Positions 8,971-47,360 of a stretch of 64,000 bases of DNA are shown here, in pieces. This stretch comes from an uncultured Holophagales bacterium (GTDB lineage: Bacteria > Acidobacteriota > Thermoanaerobaculia > Multivoradales > UBA5704). A program made the position numbers and the translations under genes. The notes below the pieces were generated by a model. It saw only the letters and a program-made list of their open reading frames with translations, was not told the origin of the DNA and did no database searches. The stretch spans positions 416,001-480,000 of the forward strand of contig CAWJGT010000003.1 in the NCBI GenBank assembly GCA_963842525.1. The letters are read 5' to 3'. Every line of letters begins with the position of its first letter. The stretch's first letter is position 1.

Positions 8971-11900
8971 GCCGTGGATGTCTGATGCGACCGGCAACGA
9001 GGTCGCGATCGTCGGCATGGCCGGCCGCTTCCCGGGGGCTCGCGACATCGAGGAGCTCTGGCGCAACCTCCGCTCCGGCGTCGAGTCGATCTCCTTCTTC
9101 ACCGACGAAGAGCTGCTGGCGGCGGGGTTGGATCCAGCGGTGCTGGCGGACCCGAGCTATGTGCGGGCGCGCGGGGTGCTGGCGGCCGTCGAGGACTTCG
9201 ACGCCCCGTTCTTCGGCTACAGCGCTCTCGAAGCCGAGGCCACAGACCCGCAGCAACGCGTCTTCCTCGAGTGCTGCTGGCAGGCCCTGGAGCAGGCGGG
9301 CTACGACAGCGAGCGATACCGCCGGCCCGTGGGCGTCTTCGCCGGCGTGGGGGCGAACGCCTACGGCTACCACGTCCTCGCGAACCGCGCACTGGCCGGC
9401 GCCATCGGCGAGTTCCAGGTGGTGCTGGGGAACGACAAGGACTACCTGGCAAGCCGGGTCTCCTACAAGCTCGACCTCACCGGACCGAGCCTCGTGGTCC
9501 AGACCGCCTGCTCGACCTCTCTGGTGGCGGTGCACCTCGCCTGCCAGGCGCTGCTCGCCGGCGAATGCGACCTGGCGCTGGCCGGCGGTGTCGCCATCAA
9601 GCTGCCGCAGACGAACGGGTATGTCTACCGCGAGGGCGGGATCAACTCTCCCGACGGGCACTGCCGCGCATTCGACGCTGGAGCGCAAGGCACGATCAGT
9701 GGCGCCGGCGTGGGGGTCGTCGTTCTCAAGCGGCTCGCTGACGCGCTGGCCGAAGGGGATCACCTCCTCGCGGTGATCCGGGGCTCGGCCGTCAACAACG
9801 ACGGCGCTCACAAGATCGGCTACACGGCGCCCAGCATCGAGGGCCAGGCCAAGGTCATCCGCATGGCTCAGGCCGTGGCCGGTGTCGATCCCGCCACGAT
9901 CACCTATGTGGAAGCCCATGGCACCGCGACCCCGTTGGGAGACCCCATCGAGTTCGCTGCCCTGACCGAGGCCTTCCGCGCCGCCGGTGGTACGGCGACA
10001 GGCTTCTGCGCGATCGGCTCGGCCAAGACCAATTTCGGGCACCTCGATGCCGCGGCCGGCGTTGCCGGCCTGATCAAGACCGTGCTGGCGCTCCATCACA
10101 AAGAGATCCCGCCGAGCCTACACTTCGAAGCGCCGAACCCCGCGATCGCCTTTGCCGAGAGCCCTTTCTACGTCAACACCACCCTCGCCCGCTGGCCCGC
10201 CACCGGATCGCCGAGGCGCGCCGGCGTCAGCTCTTTCGGCATCGGCGGCACCAACGCCCATGTGGTGCTGGAGGAGGCGCCCCCGGCGCCGGTGCCCACC
10301 CCCTCGCGGCGCCATCAGCTGCTGGTGCTCTCGGCCCGGACAGCCCCGGCGCTGGAGCACCTCACCGCGCACTTGGCCGATCAACTGGAGAGCCAAACGG
10401 ACGCGAGCCTGCCGGATGTGGCGTTCACCCTGCAGACCGGTCGCCGGCGGTTCCCGCACCGGCGCTTCGCGCTCGCCGAGGACGCGAGCGGCGCCGTCGC
10501 CGCCCTGCGCACGCAGGACCCGGCCCGGGTCGGGAGCCGGATGAGCGGCGCGTCCTCCCGCCCCGTCGTCTTCCTCTTCCCCGGACAGGGGAGCCAGCAC
10601 GTCGGCATGGGCCGTGCCCTCTACGCGAGCGAGCCGACCTTCCGCGCTGGGATCGACCGTTGCGCGGAGCTGCTCGCTCCGGTGCTGGACGTCGACCTGC
10701 GGGACATCCTCTATCCGCCGGCGGGAAGGACTGCGGACGCCGAGGCCCGCCTGCGGCGGAGCGAGCTCGCGCAGCCTGCGCTCTTCGCCGTGGAGCACTC
10801 GCTGGCCCAACTGTGGATGGAGTGGGGGATCCGTCCGGCAGCGATGGTGGGGCACAGCGTGGGCGAGCTGGTGGCGGCCTGCTTGGCTGATGTCTTCTCG
10901 CTGGAGGATGCGCTCCGCCTGACGGCGTTGCGCGGCCGCCTGATGCAGCGCCAGCCGCCGGGGGTCATGCTGGCTGTGCCGCTGGCCGAAGAGGAGCTCC
11001 GCCGGCGTCTGCGGTTGGGAGAGGATCTGGCGCTCGCGGCCGTCAACGGACCGGCCCTCTGTGTGATCTCCGGCGCGGCGGAGGCGATCGGTGCCGCGGA
11101 GGCCGAGCTCGCCGCCGGCGGGGTCGCCTGCCGGCATCTCCACACCTCCCACGCTTTCCACTCGGCCATGATGGAGCCGGCGATGCGGCCGTTCGTGGAT
11201 GCGATCGCGGCAGAGCGGCTCGCGGCGTCCCGGATACCCTTTGCCTCCAACGTCACCGGCCGGCTGATGGCAGACGAGGACGCGACCAGCCCGGCCTACT
11301 GGGGACGGCACCTGCGGGAGACCGTCCGTTTCGGGGACTGCCTGGATGCGGTGCTGGAGGAGCCCGACCGGATCCTCCTCGAGGTCGGGCCGGGCAACGC
11401 TCTGAGCACCATCGCCCGGCAGCATCCGCGGGCCGCGCAGGGAGCGATCGCGATCTCGTCCCTGCGTCGCCCGCGCGAGCAGGAAGACGACTCCGCGCTG
11501 CTGCTCACCGCCGTCGGCCGGCTCTGGCTCGCCGGGGCCGCCGTGGATTGGGACGGCTTCTATCGCTGCGAGCAGCGGCAGCGCGTGCCGTTGCCCACCT
11601 ATCCGTTCGAGCGCCGACGCTACTGCGTGGATCTGCGGCCGGCCGCGGTGTTACGCACCGAGCCGTCACCGCAGCGCGAGGACGGAGCCGTATCCGCGGT
11701 CGAGCCCACGCCGCCGGCCGGGCATGCGAGGCCCGATCTGGAAACCGCCTACGTACCGCCGGGCGGCCCGGAGGAACGGCAGGTCGCCGAGGTCTGGGAA
11801 GGCCTGCTCGGCATTGCGCCGGTAGGCGCCCATGACGACTTTTTCGAGCTGGGCGGGCATTCGCTGCTCGCCATGCAGCTCGTCGCGCGGCTGCGTGAGG

Positions 11901-14900
11901 CGATCGGCGTCGAGGTCCCGTTGCAGGATCTCCTTGCCCGCCCGACGATCGCGGGGATGGCGGCGCTGGTCGCCGAGCGGGCGGCGGTGGGGCCCATCGG
12001 CCCCGGCTCCGCTCTCGGTGCGGCCCGCCTCCTGCCGCGGCTCGTCCCGGACCCCGACCGCAGGTCTGAGCCGTTCCCTCTGACCGACCTCCAGCAGGCC
12101 TACTGGATCGGCCGCAGCGGGGACGTGGCACTGGGCGGCGTGTCGACTCACGTCTACCTCGAGATCGACGCTCTCGGGCTGGACGTGGGCCGGCTGAATC
12201 GCGCGCTGGTGCGGCTGATCGGGCACCACGGGATGCTGCGGGGCATCGTCCTGGCGGACGGTACGCAACGCATCCTCCCGGAGGTGCCTCTCTATCGCAT
12301 CGGGGTGCTCGACCTGCGCGGAGTGACTTGGGATGGGGATGGGGCCGGCGCCGCGCCCGGCCTGGAGCAGGTCCGCCGGCGGATGTCCCATCAGGTCCTG
12401 CCGAGCGATCGTTGGCCGCTGTTCGAGGTGCGGGCGAGCCTGCTGGGCCACGGCCGGGTACGGCTGCACATCAGCTTCGACTTCCTGATCGGCGACGCCT
12501 GGAGCTGGCGGCTCCTGGTGAGCGATCTCGCCCGCCTGTACCGGGATCCGGAGGCGCAGCTCCCGGAGCTCGCCATCTCGTTCCGCGAGTATGTCCTCGC
12601 CGAGCTGGCGCTCCAGGAGGGCGAGCTCTACCGGGCCGCGCTCGCGTATTGGCGCGAGCGCTTGGCGGACCTCCCGGGACCCCCGGAGCTGCCGCAGGAC
12701 GGGCCGGGCCCGCTCCCCGCGGGCTCCCGTTTCACGCGCCGCGGGGCTCGCCTCGAGAAGGAGCTTTGGGACCGGCTCAAGGCGCTGGCGCGCCGGCGCG
12801 GGCTCACCCCGTCCGGCGTCCTGGCGGCCGCCTTTTGCGAGGCTCTCGCCGCGTGGAGCAAGAGCCCGCGGTTCACCTTGAACCTCACCATTTTCAACCG
12901 GCTCCCCCTGCACCCCGAGGTCAACCGGCTGGTCGGGGACTTCACCTCCGTGCTCCTCCTTGCGGTGGACGGCTCGGCAGCCGGCCGGTTCGAAGAGCGT
13001 GCCCGTCTCGTGCAAGGCCGTCTCTGGGAGGCGTTGGAGCACCGCTCCGTGAGCGGCGTCCGCATCCTGCGCGAGCTGGCGCGGTCGCGTGGTTCCGGTC
13101 CGGCGCCGGCGCTGCCCGTGGTGTTCACCAGCATCCTGAACCTCGACGCGGGTGCCGGCGCGGAGCCGGCGTTCGTCGGGGACCTGCCGCGCAGCGAGGT
13201 GGTGTACGGCATCTCACAGACGCCGCAGGTCCTCCTCGATCACCAGGTCAGCGAGTCCGCGGGCACCCTGTTCTACAACTGGGACGCCGTGGATGCGGCG
13301 TTCCCTCCCGGCCTCCTGGACGACATGTTCGCCGCCTACCGGGTGCTGCTCGAACGCCTGGCGGCAGGAGAGGAGGCGTGGCTGGAGGAGTCGCCTCTCG
13401 CGCCGCCGCTGCCATTTCCCGTCCCTGCCTCGCCAGCACTGATGGAGCCCGCACGGCTGGAGTCGCTGTTCGCACGCCAGGTGGCGCGGCACGCCGGCCG
13501 GCCGGCGGTCATCGGTACGGACCGCGTGCTGACCTATGCAGAATTGGACCGCCGCGCGAGCTGCCTGGCGCACCGCCTCTGCGCGCTGGAAGTGAGCCGT
13601 GACCGACTGATCGCGGTCGTGATGGAGAAGGGCTGGGAGCAGGTCGTCGCCGTGCTGGCGATCCTGCGCGCGGGCGCGGCCTATCTGCCGATCGACGCCG
13701 GGCTGCCGCCGGAGCGGCTGCACAGTCTGCTGGCCGAAAGCACGCTGGCGATCACCCAGGCCCGGCTGGAGAAGGCACTCGGCTGGCCGGAGGGCCTCGT
13801 GCTCCTGTCCGTCGCCGAAGAGGAGGAGCAGGGCGCGGCCGAGCCGCCGCGGATCGAGGGCCGTCCCGAGGATCTGGCCTACGTCATCTTCACCTCCGGC
13901 TCGACCGGGACGCCCAAGGGGGTGATGATCGAGCACCGCGCGGCGGTCAATACGGTGCTCGACATCAACCGGCGCTTCGGCGTCGGGCCCGGCGATCGCG
14001 TCCTCGGGCTCTCGTCCTTGAGCTTCGACCTCTCGGTCTACGACATCTTCGGACCGCTCGCGGCCGGCGGCGCACTCGTGCTGCCCGAGCCGTCGGCGGC
14101 CCGCGAGCCGGCGCGCTGGACGGAGATGCTGGCCGGCCAGCGCGTCACCGTCTGGAATTCGGTCCCGGCGCTGCTGGACATGCTGATCGAGCATCTGGGC
14201 CAGCGCGGGGAGCCGCTACCGGACCTCCTGCGGCTGGTGCTGCTCTCCGGCGACTGGATCCCCGTCAGCCTGCCCGACCGGGTGCGGGCGGCGGCGCCCG
14301 GCGGAGTCCAGGTGGTCAGCCTGGGAGGTGCCACGGAAGCCGCCATCTGGTCGGTCCTCTATCCGATCGGCGATGTCGATCCGGCCTGGTCGAGCATCCC
14401 CTATGGCCGTCCGATGGAGGGCCAGCAGCTCCATGTGCTCGACGGCAGGCGACAGCCGCGGCCGGTCTGGGCGGTGGGGGAGCTCTACATCGGCGGGGCC
14501 GGAGTGGCGCGCGGCTACTGGCAGGACGAGGCGAAGACGGAGGCGGCTTTCGTCCGGCATCCGCGTACCGGCGAGCGGCTCTACCGGACGGGGGACCTGG
14601 GGCGGTGGCTCCCCGACGGCAAGATCGAGCTGCTCGGACGCGAGGACGCGCAGGTCAAGATCCAGGGTTTCCGCATTGAGCTCGGAGAGATCGAGGCGGC
14701 GCTCGCCCGGCACCCGTCGGTCGCTGCCTGCGCCGTGGTCGCGGCAGGCGAGCGCACCCGCCAGCGGCTGGTCGGATATGTGGTGGCGGCCGATGCCGGC
14801 ACGCCTGTGGATACGGACGACCTCAAGAGCTTTCTCGCCGCCTGCCTGCCTGCCTATATGGTCCCGGCCGCGTTCATCCATCTGCCGCTGCTGCCGCTCA

Positions 14901-17630
14901 CCGGCAACGGCAAGGTGGACAGAGCCGCCCTGCCGGCGCCCGAGCTGCGGCCCGCCGGCTCGTTCGTGCCCCCCGCAACTTCGGCCGAGCAGGCGCTGGC
15001 CGAGATCTGGCGCGAGCTCCCTGGGCGCCGAACGGGTGGGCTCCGCCGACAACTTCTTCGCGCTCGGCGGCGATTCGGTCCTGAGCCTCCAGGTGGTCGG
15101 CAGGGCGGCGCGCGCAGGGCTCCATCTGACCGCGAGCCAGGTCTTCCAGCAGCAGACGCTCGGCGAGCTCGCCGCTGCGGCCGCCGCCGCCCCGTCCGAC
15201 GACGGACCGGTGCCGGTCCCGCGCGACCGCGACCTGCCTCTCTCCTACGCCCAGGAGAGGCTGTGGTTCCTCGATCAGTTGGCCGATGGCAGCGCCGTCT
15301 ACAACATCCCCAGCGCGGTGCGCCTCGCAGGACCGTTCAATATGGCGGTGCTCGCGCGCAGCCTGAACGAGGTGGTGCGGCGCCACGAGGCTCTGAGGAC
15401 GACCTTTCCGGAGGCCGGCGGGCGGGCGCGCCAGGTGATCGCCGGCTCCCTGCGTGTGGCGATCCCGGTTATCGACCTGCGGCGGCTGCCCGCGAGCGGC
15501 CGGAGCGAGGAGGTCGAGCGGCAGGCGCTGGCGGCAGGGCTCTATCCCTTCCGCCTCGGCAGCGAACCGCTGCTGCGCGCGGTCCTGCTACGGCTGGACG
15601 CCGAGGAGCACGTGCTGCTGTTCACCATTGCGCACATCGCCAGCGACGGCTGGTCGATGGCTCTGCTGGTGCGCGAGGTCGCGACGCTCTATGCCGCGTT
15701 CACGGCCGGTCGCCCCTCGCCGCTGCCGGAGCTGCCCTTGCAGTACGCCGATTTCGCGGTGTGGCAGCGCCGGTGGCTGCAGGGGGACGCCGCGGCGCAG
15801 CGTCTCGCCTACTGGACGCGGCGGCTCGCCGGCTCCGCCTCCCTCGAGCTCCCGGCCGATCGCCCGCGTCCGCAGCGCGCCACGTTCCGCGGCGCCAGCA
15901 GGAGCTTCGACCTGCTGCCCGCGCTCGCCCGGGAGGTGAGGGCCCTGGGCGCGCAGCAGGGGACCACCCTGTTCATGACCCTGCTCGCTGCCTACGGTGC
16001 ATTGCTCCACGTGCTCTCCGGCCAGAACGACGTCGCAATCGGGACCGATGTGGCGGAACGCAGCCGTCCGGAGATCGAAGGGCTGATCGGATTCTTCGTC
16101 AATCAGCTCGTCCTGCGCCTGGACCTCGGCGGCGATCCCACGTTTGCCGAGCTGCTGCAGCGGACCCGCGCCATCGCGCTCGAGGCGTTCGATCATCAGG
16201 GCATCCCCTTCCAGCACCTGGTGGAAGCCCTCAAGCCGCCGCGGCGCCCCGGCCGGCAGCCTTTCTTCCAGGTCAAGCTCGTCCTGCAGGCAGCCCCGGG
16301 GGACGACCGGCCTCCGGAGGAAGGGGACGGGCCGGGCCTGCGCGTGAGCGCCCTCGACCTGGAGTATGGGATCACGCAACTGGACCTCATCCTCTTCGTC
16401 TGGGAGCGCGGCCAGGACCTGCGATGCACTCTTCAATATGCGCGCGACCTGTTCCTGCCGGCGACGATCGACCGGATGATCAGGTTCTTCGTCAGGTCGC
16501 TCGAGCGCGCGGTCGCCGAGCCGACGACCCGGCTCAGCGCCCTCGGCGCCGAGCTCGAAAACGTGGACCTGGAAACCAGAGCCAAGGAGACAACGATGCA
16601 ACAGGGACCCAGCAAGTTCAAATCCATCAAGCCGAAAGCGGTCAACCTCTCGCAGCGGCCGGTCGTGTCGCTGGAGCCGCACGGCGACAAGGGGCTGCCG
16701 CTGGTCGTGCAACCGGCGGCCGAGAACGTGGACCTGGCCGACTGGGCCGCGCACAACGGACAGCTCCTCGAAGACAAGCTGACGCAGCATGGGGCGGTCC
16801 TCTTCCGCGGTTTCGAGATCGACTCGCCGCCGGTGTTCGAGCGCTTCGCGGGGGCCATCTGCCGCGAGTTCTTCAGCGAAAACGGCGAGCACCCCAGGAC
16901 CTCAGTCAGCGGCAACGTCTATACGCCGGTCTTCTATCCGCCCGAAAAGCAGCTCCTGTGGCACAACGAGAACTCCTTCAACCATCGTTGGCCGCGCAAG
17001 ATCTGGTTCGGCTGTGCGCGGCCCGCCGACACCGGCGGCGAGACGCCGGTCGTCGACAGCCGCCAGGTCTACCAGCGCATCAGCCCGGCCCTGCGAGAGA
17101 AGTTCGCTTCCCGGAAAGTGATGTATGTGCGCAACTATGGCGGCGGGCTCGGGCTCGACTGGCAGACGGTGTTCCAGACCGACGACAAGGCCAGGGTGGA
17201 GCAGGTCTGCCGTGACAACCGGCTCGAGGCCGAGTGGAAGGACGGCGACCGCCTGCGCACGCGTTGCGTCAGACCGGCGGTGGTGAAACATCCCCTGACC
17301 GGCGAGATGGTGTGGTTCAACCAGGCCCAGCACTGGCATGTCTCCTGCCTCGATCCGGCCACCCGCGAATCCATCTCGACGCTCTTTGCGGAGGAGGACT
17401 TTCCCAGGGCCTGCTACTACGGGGACGGCTCGCCGATCGAGGACGCGGAGATGCGGGAGATTCTGGACGTCTACCGGGGCCTGGAGGTCAGCTTCCCCTG
17501 GCAGCGCGGCGACGTGATGCTGGTCGACAACCTGCTGGCCGCCCACGGCCGCAACGCCTTCGCCGGTGAGCGCAAGATCATGGTGGTGATGGGCGACATG
17601 ATGAGTTTCGACGAGGTCGAGTGCTCGTGA
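8963..17630 (+). CDS. Hybrid PKS-NRPS: KS-AT(malonyl)-ACP-Cy-A(Cys)-T-C-TauD/SyrP hydroxylase, with an apparent +1 frameshift at ~15020
   Basis: ATG 8963 overlaps the upstream stop (ATGAGTGA), with GGAG upstream. KS: TACSTS, HGTAT, KTNFGHL. AT: GHSVG and HAFHS. ACP: GGHSL. Cy: DFLIGD. A code DLYNLSLIWK. Homology moves from ORF 8945..17215 to ORF 14328..17630 at gag ctc c ctg ggc. Then follow T (GGDSV), C (AHIASDGWS) and a TauD domain (WHNE...AHGR). Confidence 0.9.
16596..17630 (+). other. SyrP/TauD-family Fe(II)/2-oxoglutarate beta-hydroxylase domain (344 aa), fused in frame but with its own RBS and ATG
   Basis: Motifs [18 protein letters not shown] (HxE), [19 protein letters not shown] and [18 protein letters not shown] at 16584-16589 precedes an in-frame ATG at 16596. 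Confidence 0.88.
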
Positions 17631-17649
17631 GCCGGGGCGCGGATAGGGG

Positions 17650-20600
17650 ATGAGCATGGAGATCGAGGGCTACCGGCTCTCGCCGCAGCAGAAGCGCCTG
17701 TGGGCGCGGACTGCCGGCGGTCCGGCCTTGTGCAGCCAGTGCGGGATCCTGATCGAGGGGGAGGTGAGCCCGGACGGGCTTGCCAGGGCGTTCGCCGCCC
17801 TTGTCGAGCGCCATCAGATCCTGCGTACGGCGTTCCTGCGTCAGCCCGGAATCCGCTTCCCCCTGCAGGTCATCGCCGCAGGAGACGCACCGCGCTGGCG
17901 CGCGGTCGACCTGAGCGCCGATCCGGAGCCGGAGCGACAGGCCCGGCTCGGCGAGCTGCTGCGCGCCCAGGCCGGCACGGGCCGCGATCTGGAGAGCGGG
18001 CGCGCCGTCGACGGGGTGCTCGTCCGGCTGTCGGCCGGCCGTCACGCTCTGCTGGTCGGCTTGCCCGCACTGTGTGCGGACGGCCGCACGCTCGCCAACC
18101 TGATGCGCGAGCTCGGACGGTTGTACGCGGTCTGCCTGGACGGCGGACCCGAGCCGGAGGAGCCGGTCCAGTACGTCCAGTTCTCCGAATGGCTCTACGA
18201 GCTGGATCCCGAGGAGGCCCGCGGCGCCAGATATTGGGACGAGCAGGATCTGGCCGCGTCTCCGCCGCCCGCCATCCCCTTCGGCGAGCGCCGGGCGGGG
18301 GGCGTCTTCTCTCCCACCGGCGTTACCGTGCCGCTCGACCCCGGCCTCACCGCACGGTTGCGCGGTCTGGCCGCGACGTGCCGCGCCGCGCCGGCCGACG
18401 TCCTCATGGCCGGCTGGCTGGCGCTGCTCTGGCGGCTCACCGGCCGGCCGCAGCTCGTCGTAGCGCGCCTCTGCGAAGGCAGGAAGGACGAGGAGCTGCA
18501 GGACGCCCTCGGCCTCTTCGCGCGGTTCCTGCCGCTGCGTTGCACCCTCGACGGCAGCGGCCCGTTCTCCGCTCTGGTCCGCCAGCTTCGCGACGCCGGG
18601 AAGCTGGCCGTCCGCTGGGAGGAGCTCTTCGCCCGGCAGGAGGCCGCGGACGGCGCCGGCGAGCCGCCGGTGGCCGCGGCCTTCGAGTGGCAGGAGGAGC
18701 CCGAGCCGTTCGCCGCTGCAGGGGTCGATTTTTCGCTCTTCCACCGCGATGCCTGTTTCGAGCCGTTCGAGGTCAAGCTCGCCTGCCGCGAGCGACAGGG
18801 TGCATTCACAGCCGAGCTTCTGGTTCGACGGCAGCCTCTTTGCGGCCGGCGACATGGAGCGTCTGGCCGGCCGGCTTCTCGCCGTGCTGCGCAGCACTGC
18901 GGCGGATCCCGAGGCTCGCCTCGACGACCTGGAGGCGGTCGGCGACGCCGAGCGGCAGGCGCTGCTGGTGGGCTTCAACTCCACGCAGTCGCCCTCGCCG
19001 CAGGGGCGGTGCGTCCATCACCTCTTCGCAGAGCAGGTCGCGCGCACGCCGGACGCAATCGCCGTGGTCGGTGGCGAGGAGCGCCTGACCTTCCGGGAGC
19101 TCGGCCGCCGCGCCGGCTGGCTCGCCCGCTGGCTGCGCGGCCGCTCTGTCGGTCCGGACGTGCCGGTGGCGCTCGCCGCCGCGCGCTCGCCGGAGATGCT
19201 GATCGCCGTGCTCGGCATTCTCGAGGCCGGTGGCGCCTACGTGCCGGTCGACCCGACTTCCCCGGCGGAGCGCATCTCCTTCGTGCTGGAGCAGAGCCGG
19301 GCGGCCCTGCTGCTGGCGGAGCTCCGGTTGCTCGCGGCGCTGCCGGACGGCGGAGTGGAGGTCGTGGACCTCGATGTGGCCCTCGAGCAGGCGGCAGAGG
19401 GTACCGGAGGCGCGGGCGGCGGAGCCGTCCCGGAAAGCCTTGCCTACGTCCTCTACACCTCTGGCTCGACCGGTGTTCCCAAGGGGGTGATGGTCACTCA
19501 CCAGGGGCTCTGCAACTATCTTACGTGGGCTTGCGAGGCCTACTTGGACGGTAGCGGCCGTGGGGCGCCCCTGCATTCGCCGCTCGGCTTCGATCTGACG
19601 GTGACGAGCCTGTTTGGGCCGCTGCTCGCAGGCGTTCCGGTGGTTGTGATTCCGGAGGAGGGGCCGGGAGCGCTCGTCGAGCCGCTGGCCGCGGGCGAGC
19701 CTTTCGCCCTCGTCAAGGCGACGCCGGCCCATCTGGAGGTCCTCAACCGCCTGCTGCCACCGGAGGCTTTCGCCACCGCGACGCGGGTGCTCGTCGTCGG
19801 CGGCGAGGCGTTCCGCGGCGAAACCGTCCGGCCCTGGGGCGCCGCACCTACCGCGGTCCGGATCGTCAACGAATACGGGCCCACCGAGACCGTCGTGGGA
19901 TGTTGCGTCTATGAGCTCCCGGCCGGAGCCCCAATCGCCAGCAACGTGCCCATTGGCAAGCCGATCGCCAATACGCAGATCTATCTGGTCAACCCCCGTG
20001 GCCGCATCGTCCCGGCCGGTGTGGCGGGAGAGCTCCTGATCGGCGGCGCCGGCCTGGCGCGCGGCTATCTCGGCCAGCCCTCGCTGACGGCGGAGAGGTT
20101 CGTCCCCGATCCGTTTGGAGGCGCGCCCGGTGGGCGGCTCTACCGCTCCGGAGACCTGGCGCTCCTGCGCTGGGATGGAGAGCTCGAGTACCTGGGCCGG
20201 ATCGACCGGCAGGTGAAGGTCCGCGGCTTCCGCATCGAGCTGGAGGAGATCGAAGCGGTGCTGGGACAGCACGCGGCCGTGCGGGAGGCGGTCGTGCTGG
20301 CGCGCGAGGACGTGCCGGGCGACCGGAGGCTCGTGGCCTACGTGGTAGGAGCGGATGGCGGGGCGCGGGAGGCCGGCCTTCTGCGCGAGCACCTGGGACG
20401 GAAGCTGCCGGACTACATGCTGCCTGCGGCATGGGTGTGGCTGGAGTCCATGCCACTGACCCCCAACGGCAAGGTCGACCGGCGGGCGCTGCCGCCGCCG
20501 GACGAGGTGGGCGGCACCGGGGGCGCCGCGGCTCATGAGCTGAGTCCGGTCGAAGAGATGGTGGCAGGCGTCTGGTGCGAGGTATTGGGCCGGGGGCGGG

Positions 20601-23600
20601 TCGGGGCCGACGACGACTTCTTCCAGATCGGCGGCCACTCGCTGCTGGCCACGCAGGTGATGTTCCGCTTGAGCCAGATCTTCGGAATCAGGCTACCGGT
20701 CAACCAACTGTTCGAAACACCGACGGTAGGGGGGCTCGCGGGCCAGATCGAAGCACACCTGCGGCAGCAGATCGGCCCGGTGCCACCCCTCGTGCCGGCC
20801 GGCAGGGAGGGAGAGCTGCCCCTCTCCTTCGCCCAGGAACGGCTCTGGTTCCTCGACCGGCTGCAGGCGGGGCCGCCGGTCTACAACGTCCCCATCGCCC
20901 TGCGTCTCTCCGGTGCGCTGGACGTATGCGCCCTGGAGGCAAGCCTCGGGGAGGTCGTCCGCCGCCACGAGGTGCTGCGCACCGCCTATCCCGAGGTCGC
21001 GGGGCGGCCGGTGCAACGAATCCTGCAGCCCGGCCGCAGCCTGCCGCTGGTAGATCTGAGCGGGCTTGCTCCGGGCCAGCGCGAGCCGGAGGCGCGGCGC
21101 CTCGCCCGGCGGGAGGCGCTCTCCGGATTTGACTTGGCGCGCGGGCCGGTGCTGCGCACGACCGTCGTGCGGCTGGCAGAAGCGGAGCACCTCCTCCTGC
21201 TCACCGTCCACCACATCGCGAGCGACGGCTTCTCGCTGCAGATCCTGATCCGCGAGGCGGCAGCGCTCTATGGCGCCTTTGTTGCGGGGAGGCCGTCCCC
21301 CCTCCCCGATCTGCCGGTCCAGTACGCCGACTTCGCCAGGTGGCAGCGGCACCTGCTGACCGGTGAAGCGCTCGACCGCGAGCTCGACTACTGGCGCGAC
21401 CGGCTTTCCGGAGCCCCATCTTCTCTCGACTTGCCGACTGACCGGCCGCGTCCGCCGATCCCGAGCTACCGTGGCGCCGAAGAGCCATGGGCGCTCTCCC
21501 CGGTTCTGTCACTCGCGCTCGAAGAAGGGGCGCGGCGCCACGGCGCGACGCTGTTCATGGTCCTCGTCGCAGCGTTTCAGGTGCTGCTGGCGCGGTACGC
21601 GGATCAGGAAGAGGTGCTGCTGGGCACCGCCGTTGCCGGCCGGGTACACCCAGAGACGGAAGGGCTCATCGGCTGCTTCGTCAATATGCTGGTTCTGCGC
21701 GCCGCCGTGGGCGACGCGCCGTCGTTCACCGGCTTCCTGGCGCGTGTGCGAGAGGCCGCGCTCGGGGCGTACGCGCACCAGGAGCTGCCCTTCGAGCGTC
21801 TGGTGGAGGAGCTGCGGCCGGAGCGTGACCTCAGCCGGTCCCCCCTGTTCCAGGCCATGCTCGTGCTGGAGCGGGTGCCGCCGGAGACCCCCGGGATCCC
21901 GGGCCTGCTCCTGGCCTCCGAGCCCGTGGGGGCCGCGGTCGCCCGTTTCGAGTGGACGCTGTGGGCGTTCGCCGCCGGTGAGAGGATCCAGGGGACCCTT
22001 GAATACGCCACCGATCTGTTCGATCGGGCGACGGTCCGGCGTGCGGTCGGCCACCTGGGGAGCGTCCTGGCCGCCGCGGCGTCCGATCCGGAGCGCCCGG
22101 TGCGCGAGCTGCTGCTCCTCTCCGCCGCCGAGCGGCAGCAGATCGCGTGGGAGTGGAACGACACCGGCGGCCGTGCGGTGCCCCTGCCGATGCCGCAGGC
22201 ATTTGAGGCGCTCGCCGCGAGCGAGCCCGACCGGGTGGCGATCGAGCTGGCCGGCCTCTGTCTGACCTATAGCGAGCTCGACCGCCGCGCGGCGCGCCTG
22301 GCCGGCCGTCTGCGGGCGCTGGGCGCCGGCGCCGGAGCCCATGTGGGGATCGTCGGGGTCTGCCTCGAACGGTCGCCGCGGCTCCCCCTGGCTCTTCTCG
22401 GCGTGCTCAAGGCCGGCGGCGCATACCTGCCTCTCGATCCCTCCCACCCGCCGGAGCGCCTGCAGCTCATGCTGGACGACTCGGGCGCCGCGATCGTGGT
22501 GACGGAGGAGGCGCTCGCATCCCGGTTCGCAGGCTCCGGCGCCGCACTGCTGGACCTCGACCGCGACGATGCCACGCCTGAGCCGGAGGAGAGCCGGGGC
22601 TGCGGTCCCTCCCCGGACGACCGGGCTTATGTGATCTACACCTCGGGCTCGACCGGCCGTCCCAAAGGGGTCGAGGTCTGCCATGGCTCTCTCGCCAACT
22701 TCCTCGGCTCGATGCGCCGCCGGCCCGGTCTCGATGCGAAAGACCGGCTGCTCGCGGTGACCTCGCCGTCCTTCGATATCACCGCGCTCGAGCTCTACCT
22801 GCCGCTCGCCGTCGGCGCCCGGATCGTCCTGGCGTCGCGCGAGGAGGCGATGGACGGCCGGCTCCTGGCTGCGGCCTGGGAGCGCGCCCAGGCCACAGTG
22901 CTGCAGGCGACGCCCGCCACCTGGGCCCTGCTGACCGCCGCCGGCTGGCCCGGCGCGTCCGCCGGCATGGCGCTGTGCGGCGGCGAGGAGCTGGGGCCTG
23001 CCCTTGCCGAGGCCCTGGCGCGCCGGGGGCCCGCCTGGAACCTCTACGGACCGACCGAGACGACGGTATGGTCGACCGTGGCGCGCGTCGAGCCGGCATC
23101 GGCGGATCGTCCGGTTTCCATCGGCCGGCCAATCGCCAACACCGAGGTCCACGTCGTGGACGCGGATCTCTCGTCCCTCCCGGTCGGCCTCCGCGGTGAG
23201 CTGGTCATCGGCGGGGACGGCGTGGCCCGTGGCTATCTGGGCCGCCCGGATCTGACTGCCGAGCGCTTCGTGCCAGACTCTTTCAGCCAGCGTCCAGGAG
23301 CACGTCTCTACCGCACCGGCGATATGGCGCGCTGGCGTCCCGACGGGACGCTCGCCTTCGCCGGACGACGTGACCACCAGGTCAAGCTGCGGGGGCACCG
23401 CATCGAGCTCGGCGAGATCGAGGCGGCGCTCGCGGCCTGCCCCGGAGTCCGTGAGGCGGTGGCGGTAGCGCAAGGAGAGGGGAGCGAACGGCGGCTCGTG
23501 GCCTACGTCGCGGGCGGCGGTGCGCCGGTCGCCGCGGTGGCGGTGCGCGCTGCTCTCGCGGGCAGGCTGCCGGCGGTCATGCTGCCCGAGGTCGTCGTCC

Positions 23601-26600
23601 TCGACGCCCTGCCGCGGACGCCGAATGGCAAGGTGGACCGCCGTGCCCTGCCGGCGCCGGAACGGCCGGGCTCCGGAGTAGGATTGCGGTCGCCGCGCAC
23701 GCCCACGGAGGAGATCCTGGCCGGCATCTGGGAGGCGGTGCTCGGGCGCCCCGGCGTTGGCGTCGACGAGAATTTCTTCGCCGTGGGCGGGCACTCGCTG
23801 CTGGCCGCGCAGGTGGTCGCGCGGGTGCGCGAGCATTTCGGTGTCGAGCTGCCTGTGGCCCGCGTCTTCGAGGCCCCGACGGTGGAGGCTCAGGCGCGGG
23901 AGATCGCCGTCGCGTCGGCTCCGGACGCGCCGCCTCTGCGCCCGCTGGCGCGCCGGCCGGGCGGCGGCGAGCGCTGGCCTCTCTCCTTCGCCCAGGAAGG
24001 GCTGTGGTTCCTCGCTCAGCTCGATCCGGCGAGCACGAGCTACAACCTCTCGCATGCCGTCGAGGCCGTGGGCGATCTCGACCTGCGCAGTCTGCGGCGG
24101 GCTCTGGCCGCCTTGGTGGAGCGCCACGAGGTGCTGCGTACCACCTTCGGTGTGGAGGAGGGGCGCGGCTTTCAACAGCCCGGGCCTCCATGGGCCCCGG
24201 ACCTGCCGCTCGTCGACCTGCAGGGGCTGGCGCCGGACCGGCGCGACAGAGAGGTCCAGCGGCTCACCGCCGCCGAGGCACAGCGTCCGTTCGATCTGAC
24301 CCGCGGGCCGCTGCTGCGCACGGCGGTGCTGCGCCTCGGCGCTGCCGAGCACGTCGTCCTCCTCGCCATCCACCACATCGTCGCCGACGGATGGTCGATG
24401 GGCCTCCTGGTGCGCGACCTCGCCGAGCTCTATCAGGGCCTGCGCGAAGCGCGGGCGCCGCGGCTCCCCGCGCTGCCGGTGCAGTACGCCGACTATGCGG
24501 CCTGGCAGCGCTCGTGGCTCTCCGGCACTGCTCTGGAACGGCGGCTTGCCTTCTGGCGCGAAGAGCTCGCCGGCGCGCCGGTCGTGCTCGAGCTGCCGGC
24601 CGACCACCCCCGGCCGGCGTCCGGCTCGCACCGCGGCGGACGGCGCCCGGTGCACCTTGGCGAGCCCCTGAGGCGGGGCCTTCGCCAACTCGCCCAGGGA
24701 TCGGGCGCCACTCTGTTCATGGCGCTTGCCGCCGGTTTCGCGGCGCTGCTCGCACGCCACGCCAACCGCGACGACCTGTTGCTCGGAGCGGTGACGGCGC
24801 AGCGCGACCGCTTCGGGACCGACGAGGTGATCGGCCTGTTCGCCAACACGCTGGTGCTGCGAGCGGACCTCTCCGGCCAGCCGAGCTTCCGCGAGCTGCT
24901 CAGGCGCGTGCGGCGGACCGCGCTGGCCGCCCTGAGCCACGGCGACGTGCCGTTCGAGAAGCTGGTCGAGGAGCTACGGCCCGAGCGCGACCTGGCCCAC
25001 TCCCCCCTGGTCCAGGTGGTGACGGTGCTCCAGAACCTGCCGGTCGGCGCGGCGCAACTGCCGGGCCTCGATCTGCGCCCTCTGGACGCCGGGGTCGCGA
25101 CGGCCAAGTTCGACCTCACCCTGGGCCTGGTGGAGGCGGGAGGCGAGGTCGCGGGCGCCCTGGAGCACAGCCGTGACCTCTTCGAGCCGGCGACGGTCGA
25201 GCGACTGATCGGACACCTGGTCAATCTGCTGGGCGCGGCGGTCGCGGACCCCTCTCGCGGGATTTGGGATCTCCCCCTGCTTGCCGCGGCGGAACGCCAG
25301 CAGCTCCTCCTGGAGTGGAATGCTCCGGCCTCCGTGGGCGGCCCGGAGGCCCTCCTGCACGAGCTGTTTGCCGCTCGGGTGGACCGCGATCCGGAGGCCG
25401 TGGCGGTCTTGTGTGCGGCGGAGCGCTTGAGCTACCGGGAGCTGGAAGAGCGTGCCAACCGGCTGGCGGGCTACCTGCGCAGGCTCATCGGCGCCGGCGA
25501 CCTGGTCGGCCTGTACCTGGACCGCTCGCTGGAGCTGCCTGTCGCCGTGCTCGCGGTGCTCAAGGCCGGCGGCGCCTACGTGCCGCTCGATCCGGCTTAT
25601 CCGAGGGAACGGCTGGCCACCGTGCTGGAGGACGCCGGAGTCTCCGTGCTGCTCACCCGGTCGGACCTGCGGCAGCACCTGCCGGAGACGCCGGCGCGGG
25701 TGATCGACCTCGACGCCGAAAGGGAGGCCATCGCACGTCAGCCGGCGGTGCGGCCCGCGGTTTTGGTGCCGGACGGGAGCCCGGCCTACGTGATCTACAC
25801 CTCCGGCTCGACCGGCCACCCGAAGGGATGCCTGATCAGCCATCGCAACGTGGCACGCCTGTTCGCGGCAACCGCCGGGCGGTTCGGATTCGATGCGCAC
25901 GACGTCTGGACGCTGTTCCACTCCTACGCCTTCGACTTCTCGGTCTGGGAGCTCTGGGGAGCCTTCCTCCACGGCGGCCGTCTGGTGATCGTGCCGTATT
26001 GGGTCAGCCGCTCGCCGGATGCTTTCTACGAGCTGCTGGCTAGGGAAGGGGTGACGGTGCTCAACCAGACCCCCTCGGCGTTCCGCCAGCTCGTCCAAGC
26101 CGCAGAGCAGGCGGCATCCGCGCAGCGGACAGCCCTGCGCCTGCGCTGGGTGATTTTCGGCGGAGAGGCGCTGGACCTCGCTGGTCTCGCCCCCTGGCTG
26201 GCCCGCCATGGCGATGCGGCTCCGGCCCTGATCAACATGTATGGCATCACGGAGACCACCGTGCATGTCACCTTCCGCCGTGTGGCCGCGGCCGACCTCG
26301 CGCAGGCACACCGGAGCCCGCTCGGCACCGCCCTGGCGGACCTGAGCCTCGACCTGCTCGATCCGTTCCTCCATCTTGTTCCGATTGGAGCGCCGGGGGA
26401 GATGTACATCGGAGGAGCCGGCGTCGCTCTGGGTTACCTGGGCCGGCCCGAGCTGACCGCCGAGAGGTTCGTCCCCGATCCCTTCGGCCGCACGCCCGGG
26501 GCTCGGCTCTATCGATCGGGGGACCTGGCGCGCTACCGGCCCGACGGGGACCTCGACTTCCTGGGGCGCATCGATCAGCAGGTGAAGGTCCGCGGCTTCC

Positions 26601-29600
26601 GGATCGAGCTGGGGGAGGTCGAGGCGGCCTGCGCCAACCATCCGGCGGTAGGGGAGGTCGCGGTCGCGGCGCGCCGGGAAGGTCCCGAGCGCATGCTGCT
26701 CGTCGCCTACCTGGTGCCGGCGGCGGGGCGGGAGCTCGCCGTCGCCGAGCTGCGCCGGTTCCTGCTCGATCGCCTGCCAGACTACATGGTGCCCGCGGCC
26801 TTCGTTCTTCTCGACCGGCTGCCGCGGACTCCCAGCGGCAAGCTGGACCGTAAGTCGCTGCCCGACCCGCGTCAGGAGCCGCAGCCGCTGGCTGCCGACA
26901 CCTCGCCGCGCCAGCCGGCGGAAGCGTTGCTGGCTGCGATCTGGGCCGATCTGCTGGGTATTCCGCAGCCGGGGATCCACGACAACTTCTTCGAGCTCGG
27001 AGGCGACTCGATCGTCGCTATCCAGGTGGTCGCCCGCGCGAGCCGTGCAGGGCTTTCTTTGACGCCCAGACAACTGTTCGAACGCCAGACGATCGCCGAG
27101 CTGGCGGCGGTCGCAGGGTCGGCGAGGCCGGTGACCGCCGAGCAGGGTCCGGTGACCGGAGAAGTGCCTCTGACGCCAATCCAGCAGCGCTTCTTCGCCG
27201 GCGATCCCGCCGATCCGCACCACCACAACCAGGCCTTGCTGCTGGCGGTGCGGACCCGGCCCGACGCCGCGCGGCTGGAGACCGCAATTGCGACTCTGCT
27301 CGTCCATCACGATGCCCTGCGCCTGCGGTTTCACAACACGGAGGATGGCTGGCGGCAATGTGCGGTCGAGCCGGACGGCCGCGCGCCCTGGACGTGGATC
27401 GACCTTGCGGCTCTGCCGGAGCCGGCGTTCCGGGGCATGATCGAAGGCGCGTGCGCCGCCGCGCAGGCGAACTTCGACCTCACCGCGGGCCCCCTGCTGC
27501 GCGCGATGCTGTTCGATCTCGGCGAGGATCGTCCGGGCCGCCTGCTGCTCGCCGCCCACCACCTGGTGGTCGACGGCGTCTCGTGGCGCATCCTCCTCGA
27601 AGATCTGCAAGCCGCTTACGAGCAGGCCGGCTCTCGGCAGCCCGTTCGATTACCGACGAAGACGACCTCGTACAAGCGATGGGCCGAGAATCTCGCCGGG
27701 GAGGCGCGGTCCGGGGCGCTTCGGGAGCTCGCGGCGTGGACGGCCGCTCTGCCCGGCCTTGCGCCGCCCCTGCCGCTCGACGATCCGGCCGCGCCCGATG
27801 TCGAGGCAGGGTCCGCGCAGGTCCTGACGACCCTGACGGAGGAGGAGACCGAAGCCCTGCTGCGCGGCACGCTCGCCGGCTTCCGCAGCGGCATCCAGGA
27901 GGTGTTGGTGACCTGCGTCGCGCTGGCCCTGGCCGGCTGGACCGGCTCGCGCCGGGTGCTCCTCGACCTCGAGGGGCACGGCCGCGAGGAGTTGGAGAAG
28001 GAGATGGACCTGTCGCGTACCGTCGGCTGGTTCACCGCGATCTACCCGGTGGAGCTCGACTTGGGCGCGGCGGTCGACCCGCTCGCGGCACTGAAGCGGG
28101 TCAAGGAGCAGCTCCGCGCCGTGCCGCGCGGCGGCGTGGGCTACGGTCTGTTGCGTTTCCTGGCCGGCGAGGCTGCGGCCGGGCTGCCGCGCCGCGGCCC
28201 CGAGATCGCCTTCAACTACCTGGGGCAGCTCGACCGCGCCCTCGACACGGATGCGCTGCTCCAGCCGGCTCGGGAATCGGCCGGCCCCCCGCGCAGCCAG
28301 CGGCAGCGGCGGTCTCACCGGCTTGTGCTCGACAGCAGCGTCTCCGGCGGGCGGCTGCAGATGGCATGGACTTTTGGGGCTGGCCACCGCCGCGCCACGA
28401 TCGAGCGCGTGGCCGCGGAGAGCCTGCGCTTCCTGCAAGCCGTGATCGAGCTGGGGCGCGCGACGGAAACCGCCGCCTTCACCCCCTCGGACTTCCCGCT
28501 AGCGCGCCTCGACCAGCGTACGGTGGACCTGCTGGCGGGGAACGATCGCGACATTGAGGACATCTATCCCCTTGCGCCGGCCCAGCAGGGGTTGCTGTTT
28601 CATGCCGTTTCGGCGCCGCAGTCCGGCGCCTATGTCTACCAGATGGCCTGCCGTCTCGAAGGGGCGCTCGACGAGGAGTCCTTCGCCCACGCCTGGCAGG
28701 AGGTGGTGGCCCGCCACGCGGTGCTGCGCACCGGCTTCTCCTGGCAGGCCGCCGACGAGCCGTTGCAGGTCGTGCGTCGGCGGGTCGCAGCGCCGGTCGA
28801 GCGGCTCGACTGGAGCGGCGCCCCGGCGGCCGAGCAACCGGCGAGATTGGACGGCCTTCTCGCCGAGGATCGCCGCCGCGGCTTCGATCCGGCACGGCCG
28901 CCCCTGGCACGCCTGGCGCTGGCGCGGATTGGGGAGGGGAGCTGCTGGCTGGTCTGGACCTGCCATCACCTGGTGATCGACGGCTGGTCGGTGCCGGTCC
29001 TGGTCCGTGAGGTCCTCGCTCTCTGCGGCGCCTTCGCCGAGGGCCGTCCGGCGGCGCTCGACCGCGTCCGGCCTTATCGTGACTTCATCGCCTGGCTTGC
29101 GGACCAGGATCCCTCCGCGGCCGAGGGCTATTGGCGGCAGCGCCTGGCCGGCTTCCGCCGGCCGGTACAGATCGGGTCGGATTCAGCAGCCGGCCGGTCT
29201 GGCGGTACGACCGCGCATCTCGCCTCCGTGCCGGCCGGCTTGAGCTGCGCGCTGGAAGAGCTCGGGCGGCGGCATCGCCTCACTCTCGCCACACTGCTGC
29301 AGGGAGCCTGGGCCCTGCTCCTCTCCGACCTGGGTGGCACGCTGGACGTGGTCTTCGGCGGCGTGGTCTCGGGCCGTCCGCCGGAGCTGTCCGGCAGCGG
29401 AGACATGGTGGGCATGTTCATCAACACGCTGCCGGTGCGGGCCCAGGTCGACCTGCAGGCGGCTCTGCTGCCCTGGCTCGCCGAGCTGCAGGAGCGGCAG
29501 CTCGCGGCGCAGTCGTACGCCCACGTGCCGCTCGCCGAGATCCGGCGGTGGAGCGAGGTCCCTTCCGGGCTGCCCCTGTTCGAGAGCACTTTCGCGTTCA

Positions 29601-29946
29601 ACAACTACCCGGCCGGCGGTCCGTTAACGCGTTCAGGCGGCAGTATGGCGATCGCCGAGGTGCGCGAGCTGGAGGCTACGAGCTATGCCCTCGACCTCAC
29701 CGTGGCCGCCACCGGCGGCGAGCTGTCGCTGCGGATCATGTACGACCGCAGCCGCTTCGGCGGTGAAGAGATCCAGGAGCTGGTTGGCTCGCTCCTGGCC
29801 CTGCTCGCCGCGATGACCGAGCGGCCGGAAGGGCGGCTCAGCGACTGCCTCGCCGCTCTCGCGCAACGCCGCCCGAGCGAGCTGGCCGTGCATCGTTTCA
29901 AAGCGGTCAAGCCCAAGGCCGTCACCTTGCTGGAAGAGGAGGCGAG

Positions 29947-29950
<4 letters not shown>
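17650..29950 (+). CDS. NRPS: I(interface)-A(Asn)-T-C-A(Gly)-T-C-A(Thr)-T-E-C(DCL), with an apparent +1 frameshift at ~18819
   Basis: The N-terminal C-like domain has GYRLSPQQKRLW and LPALCADG in place of HHxxxDG. Homology moves from ORF 17650..19554 to ORF 18749..29950 at gcc gag ctt c tgg ttc gac. A codes: DLTKVGEVGK (Asn), DILQLGLVWK (Gly), DFWNIGMVHK (Thr). T GGDSI precedes E (HHLVVDGVSW, EGHGRE, RTVGWFT). The terminal C has IYPLAPAQQGLLFH and HHLVIDGWS. Confidence 0.9.
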
Positions 29951-37644
<7,694 letters not shown>

Positions 37645-37653
37645 GGAGCACCG

Positions 37654-43368
<5,715 letters not shown>

Positions 43369-46300: not shown

Positions 46301-47360
46301 CCGGAGCGTCCGCAGCCGGCGGCAGGATACGCGCCGCCGAGAAGCTCCCGCGAGCTGCGCCTCGTCCAGATCTGGGAGGAGCTGTTCGGCATCCATCCGA
46401 TCGGCGTCCGCGACGACTTCTTCGAGCTGGGGGGCCATTCGCTGCTCGCGGTGCGCCTGCTGGCCGAGATCCAGAGCCGCTTCGACTGCGACCTGCCTTT
46501 GCGGACCCTGCTCGCGGAGGCGACCGTCGAAGGGCTCGCGCGGCGGCTGGCCGGTGTTGCGGCCAACGCATGGTCTCCGCTCGTGGCGCTGCAGCCGAGA
46601 GGCTCACGCCCCCCGCTGTTCTGCATCCACTCCGGCGGCGGCGGCGTGCTGAGCTACGTCGGCCTCGCCCGGCATCTCGGCGAGGACCAGCCGGTCTATG
46701 CCCTGGAGGCGCGCGGCCTAGAAGCCGGCCAGGAGCCGCTCGCTACGGTCGCGGAGATGGCGGACCTCTACCTGGAGGCGCTCCGCGGCCTGCGCCCCGC
46801 GGGACCCTATTGTCTTGCCGGCTGGTCCTTCGGCGGCTATGTGGCCTACGACATGGCGCAGCGGATCCGCGCCTCCGGCGGCGAGGTCGCGGTGCTGGCG
46901 CTGCTCGACACCGCCGTCTGGCGGTGGGGCACGCGCCAGGACGCCGAGTTGCTGGCGGATCTGCTCGGCGAAAGGTTCCCGGGGCTGGAGCTGGACGAGA
47001 TGCAGCGCTGCGGGAGCCGCGACGAGCTGCTCGCCCACCTGGTACGGCGGGCGAAGGAGCTGGCGCTGGTACCGCCGGGGTTCGAGGTCGAGCAGGCGCG
47101 CCGGATGTTCGCCGTCCACCGCCGGCACCACGACGCTGCCGCGGCCTACACACCGGCGCCCTATCCCGGCAGGCTTACGCTGGTGCGCGGCCGCGGCGGC
47201 TGGCCGGAGTGGGCCGAGGACCGGAGCCTTGGATGGGGGGATCTGGCGCTCGGCGGCGTCGAGATCCTCGAGGTCTCCGGCGGTCACACCAACCTGCTCG
47301 ATCCGCCGCACGACCGGGAGGTCGCGGCGCGCCTCCGGCAGTGCCTCGACCGGCTCTCCC

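Follow-up and report, generated by a model that had tools for sequence, protein, structure and literature searches.

A 64,000-nucleotide stretch of the genome of an uncultured Holophagales bacterium (contig CAWJGT010000003.1, positions 416,001 to 480,000), referred to here as the window and numbered from its first letter, holds one long + strand assembly line of nonribosomal peptide synthetase (NRPS) and polyketide synthase (PKS) modules, as read from Pfam domains and translations. Two of its subunits open with an interface (I) domain, a condensation-like domain in which LPALCAD replaces the HHxxxDG motif, and each follows a subunit that closes in a condensation (C) domain and a basic ten-residue peptide. 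At the first junction this peptide runs into a TauD hydroxylase, and at the second the protein stops shortly after it. The shared peptide and its relation to the I domains are the subject of this analysis; all features of the two junctions lie on the + strand of the window.

Two interface-domain junctions in one assembly line

At junction 1, the open reading frame (ORF) 14328-17630 encodes a T domain, a C domain (Pfam Condensation, amino acids 302-739), peptide 1 (amino acids 763-772), a TauD domain (amino acids 795-1087) and a stop codon (17628-17630), in this order. The C domain (15231..16544, PF00668) closes the upstream subunit and has AHIASDGWS at 15630-15656. Peptide 1 (16614..16643) links it to a TauD/TfdA-family Fe(II)/2-oxoglutarate dioxygenase domain, which together with its stop codon spans 16710..17630 and was assigned using PF02668 and an AlphaFold2 (AF2) model. 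The PF02668 match scored 164.6 bits against a cut-off of 27 and covered profile positions 8-266 of 267. The residues H135, E137 and H329, which we take to be the His-x-Asp/Glu...His metal-binding triad, are present in this protein and invariant across a TauD alignment (A3) of 76 sequences. The AF2 model of the domain has a mean predicted local distance difference test score (pLDDT) of 90.4, with residues 1-30, including the motif, at pLDDT 47-64 and devoid of secondary structure (predicted disordered). No solved structure covers this N-terminal peptide, as the best TauD-family chains align only from query residue 46 or 68.

An internal Shine-Dalgarno-like AAGGAG (16584-16589) and an in-frame ATG (16596-16598), which together occupy 16584..16598, lie in the sequence six codons 5' of peptide 1, and the ATG may serve as a start. 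In its appearance, the fused TauD resembles a free-standing gene that has been captured, and it might be translated separately from the internal ATG. The AAGGAG/ATG pair sits in an A-rich stretch. The gene of the next subunit starts 19 nucleotides (nt) after the end of TauD, at 17650, with the interface domain I1 (17650..18950; GYRLSPQQ at 17668, LPALCAD at 18061-18081), which ends in the frame of ORF 18749. The core of the following adenylation (A) domain lies at 19583..19900 and has the signature DLTKVGEVG.

At junction 2, the upstream subunit (18749-29950) ends in a C domain (28553..29860) located downstream of an E domain and containing CHHLVIDGWS at 28961-28990. Its 45-residue tail (29813..29950) contains peptide 2 (RFKAVKPKAV, 29894-29923), followed by TLLEEEAR and the stop, so that peptide 2 ends 8 residues ahead of the stop and no hydroxylase is present. 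The GAGGAGG ribosome-binding site of the next gene lies in the last codons of this tail, and its ATG overlaps the upstream stop (ATGA). The interface domain I2 encoded there (29947..31266) has GYRLSPRQQ at 30007 and LPALCAD at 30391-30411, and is followed by an A-domain core at 31879..32193, again with the signature DLTKVGEVG.

An earlier note on this DNA had described both LPALCAD domains and the A domains behind them, both upstream C domains, and the two peptides, one continued by TauD and the other by a stop after 8 residues; all of these features were found where it had placed them. By the signature DLTKVGEVG, both A domains are presumably Asn-type. The subunit that the note began at 17650 does have that start and the I domain, but it is not one open frame in the assembly (break near 18812).

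The pattern [KR]F[KR]..[KR]P[KR]AV occurs exactly twice in the six-frame translation of the 9.95 Mb genome, as peptides 1 and 2. Both peptides were also scored with a position-specific scoring matrix (PSSM), which was trained solely on 96 distinct N-terminal peptides of standalone TauD proteins, with the window's own peptide excluded. Peptide 1 reached 37.1 bits. The junction-2 tail, at 27.8 bits, ranked first of the 29,813 ORF ends in the genome, the next best having 16.4 bits.

The basic peptide in TauD hydroxylases

A search with TauD and its 50 upstream residues returned thousands of relatives. The best 120 of them are mostly free-standing proteins of ~347 amino acids from Acidobacteriota and cyanobacteria, with 58-68% identity. 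These standalone homologues bear the motif at their own N-terminus (residues 10-22), one match being identical to peptide 1, which indicates that the peptide is part of the hydroxylase family rather than a C-domain linker. Of the 120 matches listed, 3 have the strict pattern and 21 fit a looser version, and in most of them a degenerate form can be seen. The window's genome encodes eight TauD copies, six with a degenerate motif; one is located in the window, where it is the only TauD of contig C3, and seven are on other contigs.

The basic peptide in tails of condensation-ended subunits

For a census of I junctions, we used 80 I-type loci from reference genomes (the best 80 of 587 confirmed candidates) and 80 from metagenomes (the best 80 of 556); the census is therefore a sample of the 160 top-ranked loci out of more than 1,100 candidates. 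The locus scan was built on a subset of four I-domain sequences, since an alignment of nine I domains was too divergent, and start codons and upstream ORFs were assigned by simple rules. Tails were scored with the PSSM over their last 45 residues and called significant when they beat 95% of their own composition-preserving shuffles. Among the I-led subunits for which an upstream gene could be identified, this gene lacks a hydroxylase in 27 of 88 (26 and one hand-added junction) in the first set and in 19 of 72 in the second, or roughly a quarter to a third.

The earlier note had proposed testing whether the motif accompanies downstream I domains with or without TauD, and in the census it does. 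Fused junctions have the motif between C and TauD in 20/20 cases. Tails in front of I-led subunits without TauD were significant in 14/16 reference-genome junctions (median 9.5 bits), against 4/52 control tails in front of ordinary C-led subunits (median -4.9). This difference (Fisher 2.6e-9, Mann-Whitney 6.8e-8) was reproduced on the metagenome loci with the same fixed matrix and thresholds (8/12 against 1/32, Mann-Whitney 3.5e-6), although the p-values of both sets overstate independence because the loci are related to one another. The motif is specific for I junctions, and the outcome that the note had named as a refutation, a motif common in tails that no I domain follows, was not obtained. 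Two further clear tails, L086 and L066, had initially been classed as 'other'. Nine I junctions have a non-NRPS gene upstream and no clear motif, with L071 among them at 4.3 bits (shuffle p 0.03).

Where a standalone TauD gene lies between the subunits, the C-ended subunit has a significant tail in 21/31 cases (p<=0.05), and TauD has its own copy of the motif. Three more tails are at 0.05-0.11. Of the 7 that remain, two have an upstream ORF that is itself a C-TauD fusion, and in another two the upstream ORF is no NRPS. In L062, for instance, the NRPS ends ..IQQKLTNVKRRTSKES.. and its separate TauD starts MTKIKSLGSVRRKAVNIS. In front of domains other than I, the motif is missing from two of three C-ended subunits (L143, L120) and present in L066:5631. 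The latter, from a gammaproteobacterial metagenome-assembled genome, has a strong tail (KLKTVSRKSVDLS, 19.6 bits), and the first domain of its next subunit keeps an HHxxxDG-like VIHHIISDGW; judged by its sequence, this acceptor may be an I-like domain that still has its histidines.

All 16 tails of the first set stop 1-23 residues past the motif core. The tails can be aligned with one another over ~45 residues, from the RLSxL with which the C domain ends, through a charged and helix-like segment, to KLKxxKRKxV. This alignability bears on the proposal that the peptide is intrinsic to the hydroxylase, as a TauD lid or substrate-binding arm, and that the basic tails elsewhere are unrelated low-complexity sequence. 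The motif is indeed most sharply conserved on TauD N-termini, and Arg-rich ORF ends are common in the high-GC genome of the window. However, AT-rich cyanobacterial tails follow the same pattern (for example, L088 with LQQKLSNIRRKSVN), composition-preserving shuffles are beaten by the 14 and 8 tails noted above, and the tails align with one another over 45 residues. We regard this explanation as very improbable.

Two forms of the motif and the origin of the junction-2 tail

The family consensus is h-[KR]-x-h-[KR]-[PR]-[KR]-x-[VI], represented in the window by [KR]FKxxKPKAV, and it exists in two forms: L-K-x-x-K-R-K-x-V in C-ended subunits and F-K-x-I-K-P-K-A-V in hydroxylases. Position 2 is F in 42/96 hydroxylase N-termini and L in 27/31 C-subunit tails, position 7 is P in 55/96 and R in 27/31, respectively, and position 12 is L in 57/96 hydroxylases and unconserved in the tails. 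Peptide 1 has the hydroxylase form. The junction-2 tail also has this form at all three discriminating positions (F2, P7, L12), and it tracks the TauD consensus as far as its stop (KAVTLLEEE against KAVSLPQEE).

The last 151 residues of the junction-2 subunit have a sole significant relative among 5.8 billion proteins, P0126, which is a C-TauD fusion. It shares 55% identity with the junction-2 C domain over 388 amino acids, and the alignment continues through AFSRFREVKPKALDL, behind which P0126 has a complete TauD. Its hydroxylase form and this closest relative identify the tail as a remnant of a lost hydroxylase. The most likely ancestor of junction 2 is thus a C-peptide-TauD fusion that shed the enzyme body and retained the tag. 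A recent duplication of junction 1 into junction 2 was rejected, as the DNA of the two junctions has just three short weak matches in common and I1 and I2 are 36% identical. A search of 41 genomes with the last 400 residues of the junction-2 subunit for an orthologous cluster in relatives gave best matches of 48-49% identity, which are generic C-domain paralogues, so that the comparison had no orthologue to draw on.

A tail of this origin could also be a neutral scar, that is, the functionless first codons of a deleted hydroxylase, to which the I2 module is indifferent. Such a scar would agree with the hydroxylase form of the tail and with its C-TauD relative, which imply that a deletion did occur, with the two frame breaks in the cluster and with the in vitro finding for one system that its I domain could be dispensed with (PMC13638107, available text). 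However, the same peptide class closes C-ended subunits at I junctions of many lineages, with the stop close behind the core in 16/16 cases, whereas a remnant evolving neutrally should decay and its breakpoints should scatter. Furthermore, C-ended subunits with an adjacent separate TauD gene bear the motif in their own form (L2, R7), and a tail of that form beside an intact TauD cannot be a TauD remnant. A purely neutral scar is therefore unlikely in our view. The earlier note had opposed a docking element to a deletion scar; the two are not exclusive, as the tail is a hydroxylase remnant by origin and was apparently kept by selection.

Interface domains and their phylogeny

Both I1 and I2 match PF00668 (I1 with 125 bits). 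I1 stands at a subunit start, before an A domain and adjoining TauD, and I2 has the same position and A domain with the hydroxylase missing. A tree of C-like domains from 104 protein N-termini separated 96 rows (95 of I type and one of the 9 canonical C domains, L090_p9980) from the other 8 canonical C domains at 99*, and I2 was placed within the I clade, apart from ordinary C domains. This tree was built with FastTree, a quick method, and its long branches were flagged. I domains preceded by a tail only are scattered among the TauD-linked ones, with 14 changes on the tree, of which starred branches force at least 4; the tail-only L088, for example, is sister to L062, which has TauD, at 97*. 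When the tree and the peptides were compared by eye, K-P-K peptides went with one large I clade and [KR]-R-K peptides with the other, a pairing that could reflect co-evolution or merely shared descent.

The A domains after tail-only I domains (12 modules) have Asn-like (4), Asp-like (2), DAWQ[FY]GLID (3) and other (3) signatures, whereas those after TauD-linked I domains (43 modules) are less varied, with 24 Asp-like signatures.

The window's genome encodes nine I-type domains, all at a protein start. Five have no TauD nearby, and each of these follows a C-ended subunit with a short basic tail. Four of the five lie beyond the window, at C3:527042, C3:590225(-), C3:1539914(-) and C34:294823 of this genome (G000), and the tails preceding them are Arg-rich. 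Among the examined genome and loci, no I-type domain was located within a polypeptide, all being at a subunit start, and no single-chain C-peptide-I fusion was found; of ten apparent cases, one was a TauD/I pair separated by a stop (L037), one was an ordinary C domain, and the others were spurious frames that lay ahead of the true starts.

Two unusual gene arrangements were observed at I junctions. A B12-type radical SAM gene (CxxxCxxC, ~560-600 amino acids, ending in ..LSLEIASV..) lies between a TauD-fused NRPS and an I-led subunit in G000 (C9:1582937-1584622), L034, L064 and L167. On C9 of G000, a duplicate of the first residues of the I protein (MNQAPAAGFPLT) directly follows the TauD stop, an arrangement that insertion of the gene at this junction would produce. 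The N-termini of these junction-inserted proteins were inspected for the basic motif, and none carries it. In three cases, two hydroxylases share one junction, with a C-TauD fusion followed by a free-standing TauD and then by the I-led subunit (G000 C23:116754-118950(-), L056, L058).

Comparison with known systems

The third-best solved match to I2 is the X-domain chain 4tx2 (E 9e-18). The X domain of glycopeptide NRPSs is a catalytically dead C-type domain that recruits P450 oxygenases in trans. It closes the last module, and its partner is the surface of a folded P450; it is not known to bind a short basic peptide. The I domain would resemble it as a C-type domain that recruits oxygenases, but the two differ in position and partner. 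Other docking elements of NRPSs and PKSs are COM domains and β-hairpin docking domains, the latter binding short C-terminal peptides. As in those systems, a short C-terminal tail here would pair with an N-terminal element of the next subunit. In contrast to them, a whole C-like domain would act as the acceptor, the subunits are divided at C|A and not T/E|C, and a tailoring enzyme shares the tag.

I domains are already known, as is their association with hydroxylases, whether fused or free, and antiSMASH 8 has profiles for both. I domains with fused or standalone Asp/His β-hydroxylases were described in siderophore NRPSs by Reitz et al. 2019 (PNAS 116:19805), as cited in the available text of PMC12230676, PMC12971057 and PMC12628792. 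In these systems a TauD protein, C-terminal or free, is followed by a C-like domain lacking HHxxxDG and by an A domain, and junction 1 is built exactly so. Junction 2 differs in having an I domain and the peptide without a hydroxylase, and the A domains after I1 and I2 read as Asn-type, not Asp/His.

The chemically characterised cyanochelin B cluster (Leptolyngbya sp. NIES-3755 plasmid 2, AP017310.1; PMC12628792, available text) contains two hydroxylase junctions, one fused and one standalone, and an LPALCAD-type subunit comes after each. At the fused junction, RFKQTAPKAISLS (22.3 bits) precedes TauD, and an LPALCAD domain opens the protein that follows. A hydroxylase is kept at both junctions, unlike at junction 2 of the window, where the enzyme is missing, and the product is hydroxylated at both of its Asp residues.

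Myxoglucamide biosynthesis has the same C-oxygenase | I-A-T split as junction 1, with MxgA (C-dioxygenase) and MxgB (I-A-T) coupling the hydroxylation of a carrier-bound amino acid to condensation (PMC13638107). The glidomide system shares this split, and the I domain of its GlmF is reported there to be indispensable. These systems differ from the present one in that a docking peptide is not discussed in the available text of PMC13638107, in which the word 'docking' occurs 0 times. A shared basic peptide, a docking peptide for I domains, or hydroxylase-less I junctions that retain such a peptide were not described in the full-text literature searched; Reitz et al. 2019, Chen et al. 2022 and supplements are outside that scope and may mention the motif.

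Proposed docking on the interface-led module

The distribution of the basic peptide is probably best explained if the peptide serves the I-led module as a short docking motif and has been kept by selection. We infer that the peptide binds, that its target is the I domain and that its retention was due to selection. The motif is worn by the three kinds of protein that must act in trans on an I-led module, namely the C-ended upstream subunit, the C-TauD fusion and the free-standing TauD, and these partners would most likely dock on the I domain or on the I-A-T module headed by it. At junction 1, the peptide would hold the C domain and the hydroxylase alike on I1. At junction 2, the hydroxylase body of an ancestral C-peptide-TauD fusion would have been lost, and the peptide would have been retained since the C-ended subunit still must find I2.

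The earlier note had suggested predicting complexes of the peptides with the I domains. For I2 with the 45-residue junction-2 tail, the prediction reached a score of 0.48, the best of 3 controls having 0.00, with at least 53% contact agreement between runs and a partner pLDDT of at least 51. The mark used is reached by 58/80 solved complexes and 2/110 mismatched pairs, and scores at <=0.60 are those of 7/80 solved complexes and both passing mismatches, so that this result lends weak support to the pairing of I2 and the tail.

The motif might instead dock on another part of the downstream module, such as the A or T domain or an accessory protein, the I domain being a co-travelling marker. All I domains in the census precede A-T, and the census is therefore unable to separate I from the rest of the module; the complex prediction also returned no contacts. 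However, it was the I domain alone that passed weakly with the tail when all three controls gave 0.00, and the motif seldom precedes ordinary C-A-T subunits (4/52 and 1/32), whose A and T domains are the same. Such docking away from the I domain appears improbable.

A further possibility, which we consider doubtful but more plausible than either docking elsewhere or a neutral scar, is that the I domain serves as the acceptor half, and the peptide as the donor half, of a general system that docks NRPS modules split between C and A, and is not a hydroxylase-positioning domain in the first place. Hydroxylases would have joined this system by wearing the tag. The two tag forms could address two sites, or could order two partners on one I domain. 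Since the TauD of the window has its own putative internal ribosome-binding site and ATG, it could also be made as a free tagged enzyme. This single TauD, made free from 16584-16598, would then serve I2 in trans, and the product would have two β-hydroxy-Asn residues.

Several observations weigh against docking of the peptide on I domains as proposed above. The tails of 2/16 and 4/12 junctions fail to beat their shuffles. In the window's own genome, three of the Arg-rich tails are unremarkable (5.0, 1.4 and -4.3 bits), as 793 of 29,813 ORF ends reach 5 bits. The census loci are related to one another, as noted above, two of them (L035 and L097) being near-copies, and L093:7740, one of the 16 junctions, has a doubtful I domain. 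The standalone junction of cyanochelin B was not detected by the PSSM (-2.3, -5.6), a degenerate basic run being visible there by eye only. The complex prediction of I2 and the tail was a weak pass without contacts, and the association could be with any part of I-A-T rather than with I itself. Coupled hydroxylation and condensation in vitro did not require the MxgB I domain (PMC13638107, available text). Finally, with two frame breaks the cluster of the window might be decaying.

The 2026 study that found this I domain dispensable in vitro asked what other roles are possible (PMC13638107). The tag common to C-ended subunits and hydroxylases provides a testable answer, namely that the I domain may be a docking platform. 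The window shows the states with and without a hydroxylase in one assembly line and with an identical A-domain signature. If the docking proposal is true, the reading of such clusters would change, as an I domain alone would not predict a β-hydroxy residue, and the ten-residue tag would be a handle to re-wire subunit order or to recruit tailoring enzymes in engineered NRPSs.

Organization of the assembly line and its frame breaks

The window has a G+C content of 72%, and the host genome is in 34 contigs. The assembly line begins with an open-ended gene of three C-A-T modules (1-8970), followed by a PKS-NRPS hybrid subunit with the order KS-AT-T-Cy-A-T-C-peptide-TauD (8945..17630), which was read from Pfam domains and translations in two frames (8945.. 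and 14328..17630). The two I-led subunits have the orders I-A-T-C-A-T-C-A-T-E-C (17650-29950) and I-A-T-C-A-T-E (29947-37644). They are followed by a C..A-Ox-T gene (37654-43368) and a C-A-T-TE gene (43334-47374). A MacB/FtsX permease and unrelated genes lie downstream of the assembly line, and a new NRPS starts from 58338.

Two frame breaks of one base each interrupt the cluster. The first, near 15008-15012, is an extra C in CTCCCTGGG, in the T domain before C-TauD, and the second, near 18812, is an extra base at CTTCTGG close to the end of I1. Because of these breaks, neither the upstream subunit of junction 1 nor the I1-A subunit is a single open frame in the assembly. Both could be assembly errors or genuine inactivation. 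The single public read set that contains the stretch (share 0.05) was mapped to 14800-19000 and covered neither break. In the TauD region (16001-18000), the G+C content dips to 0.674, compared with ~0.72 in the rest of the cluster.

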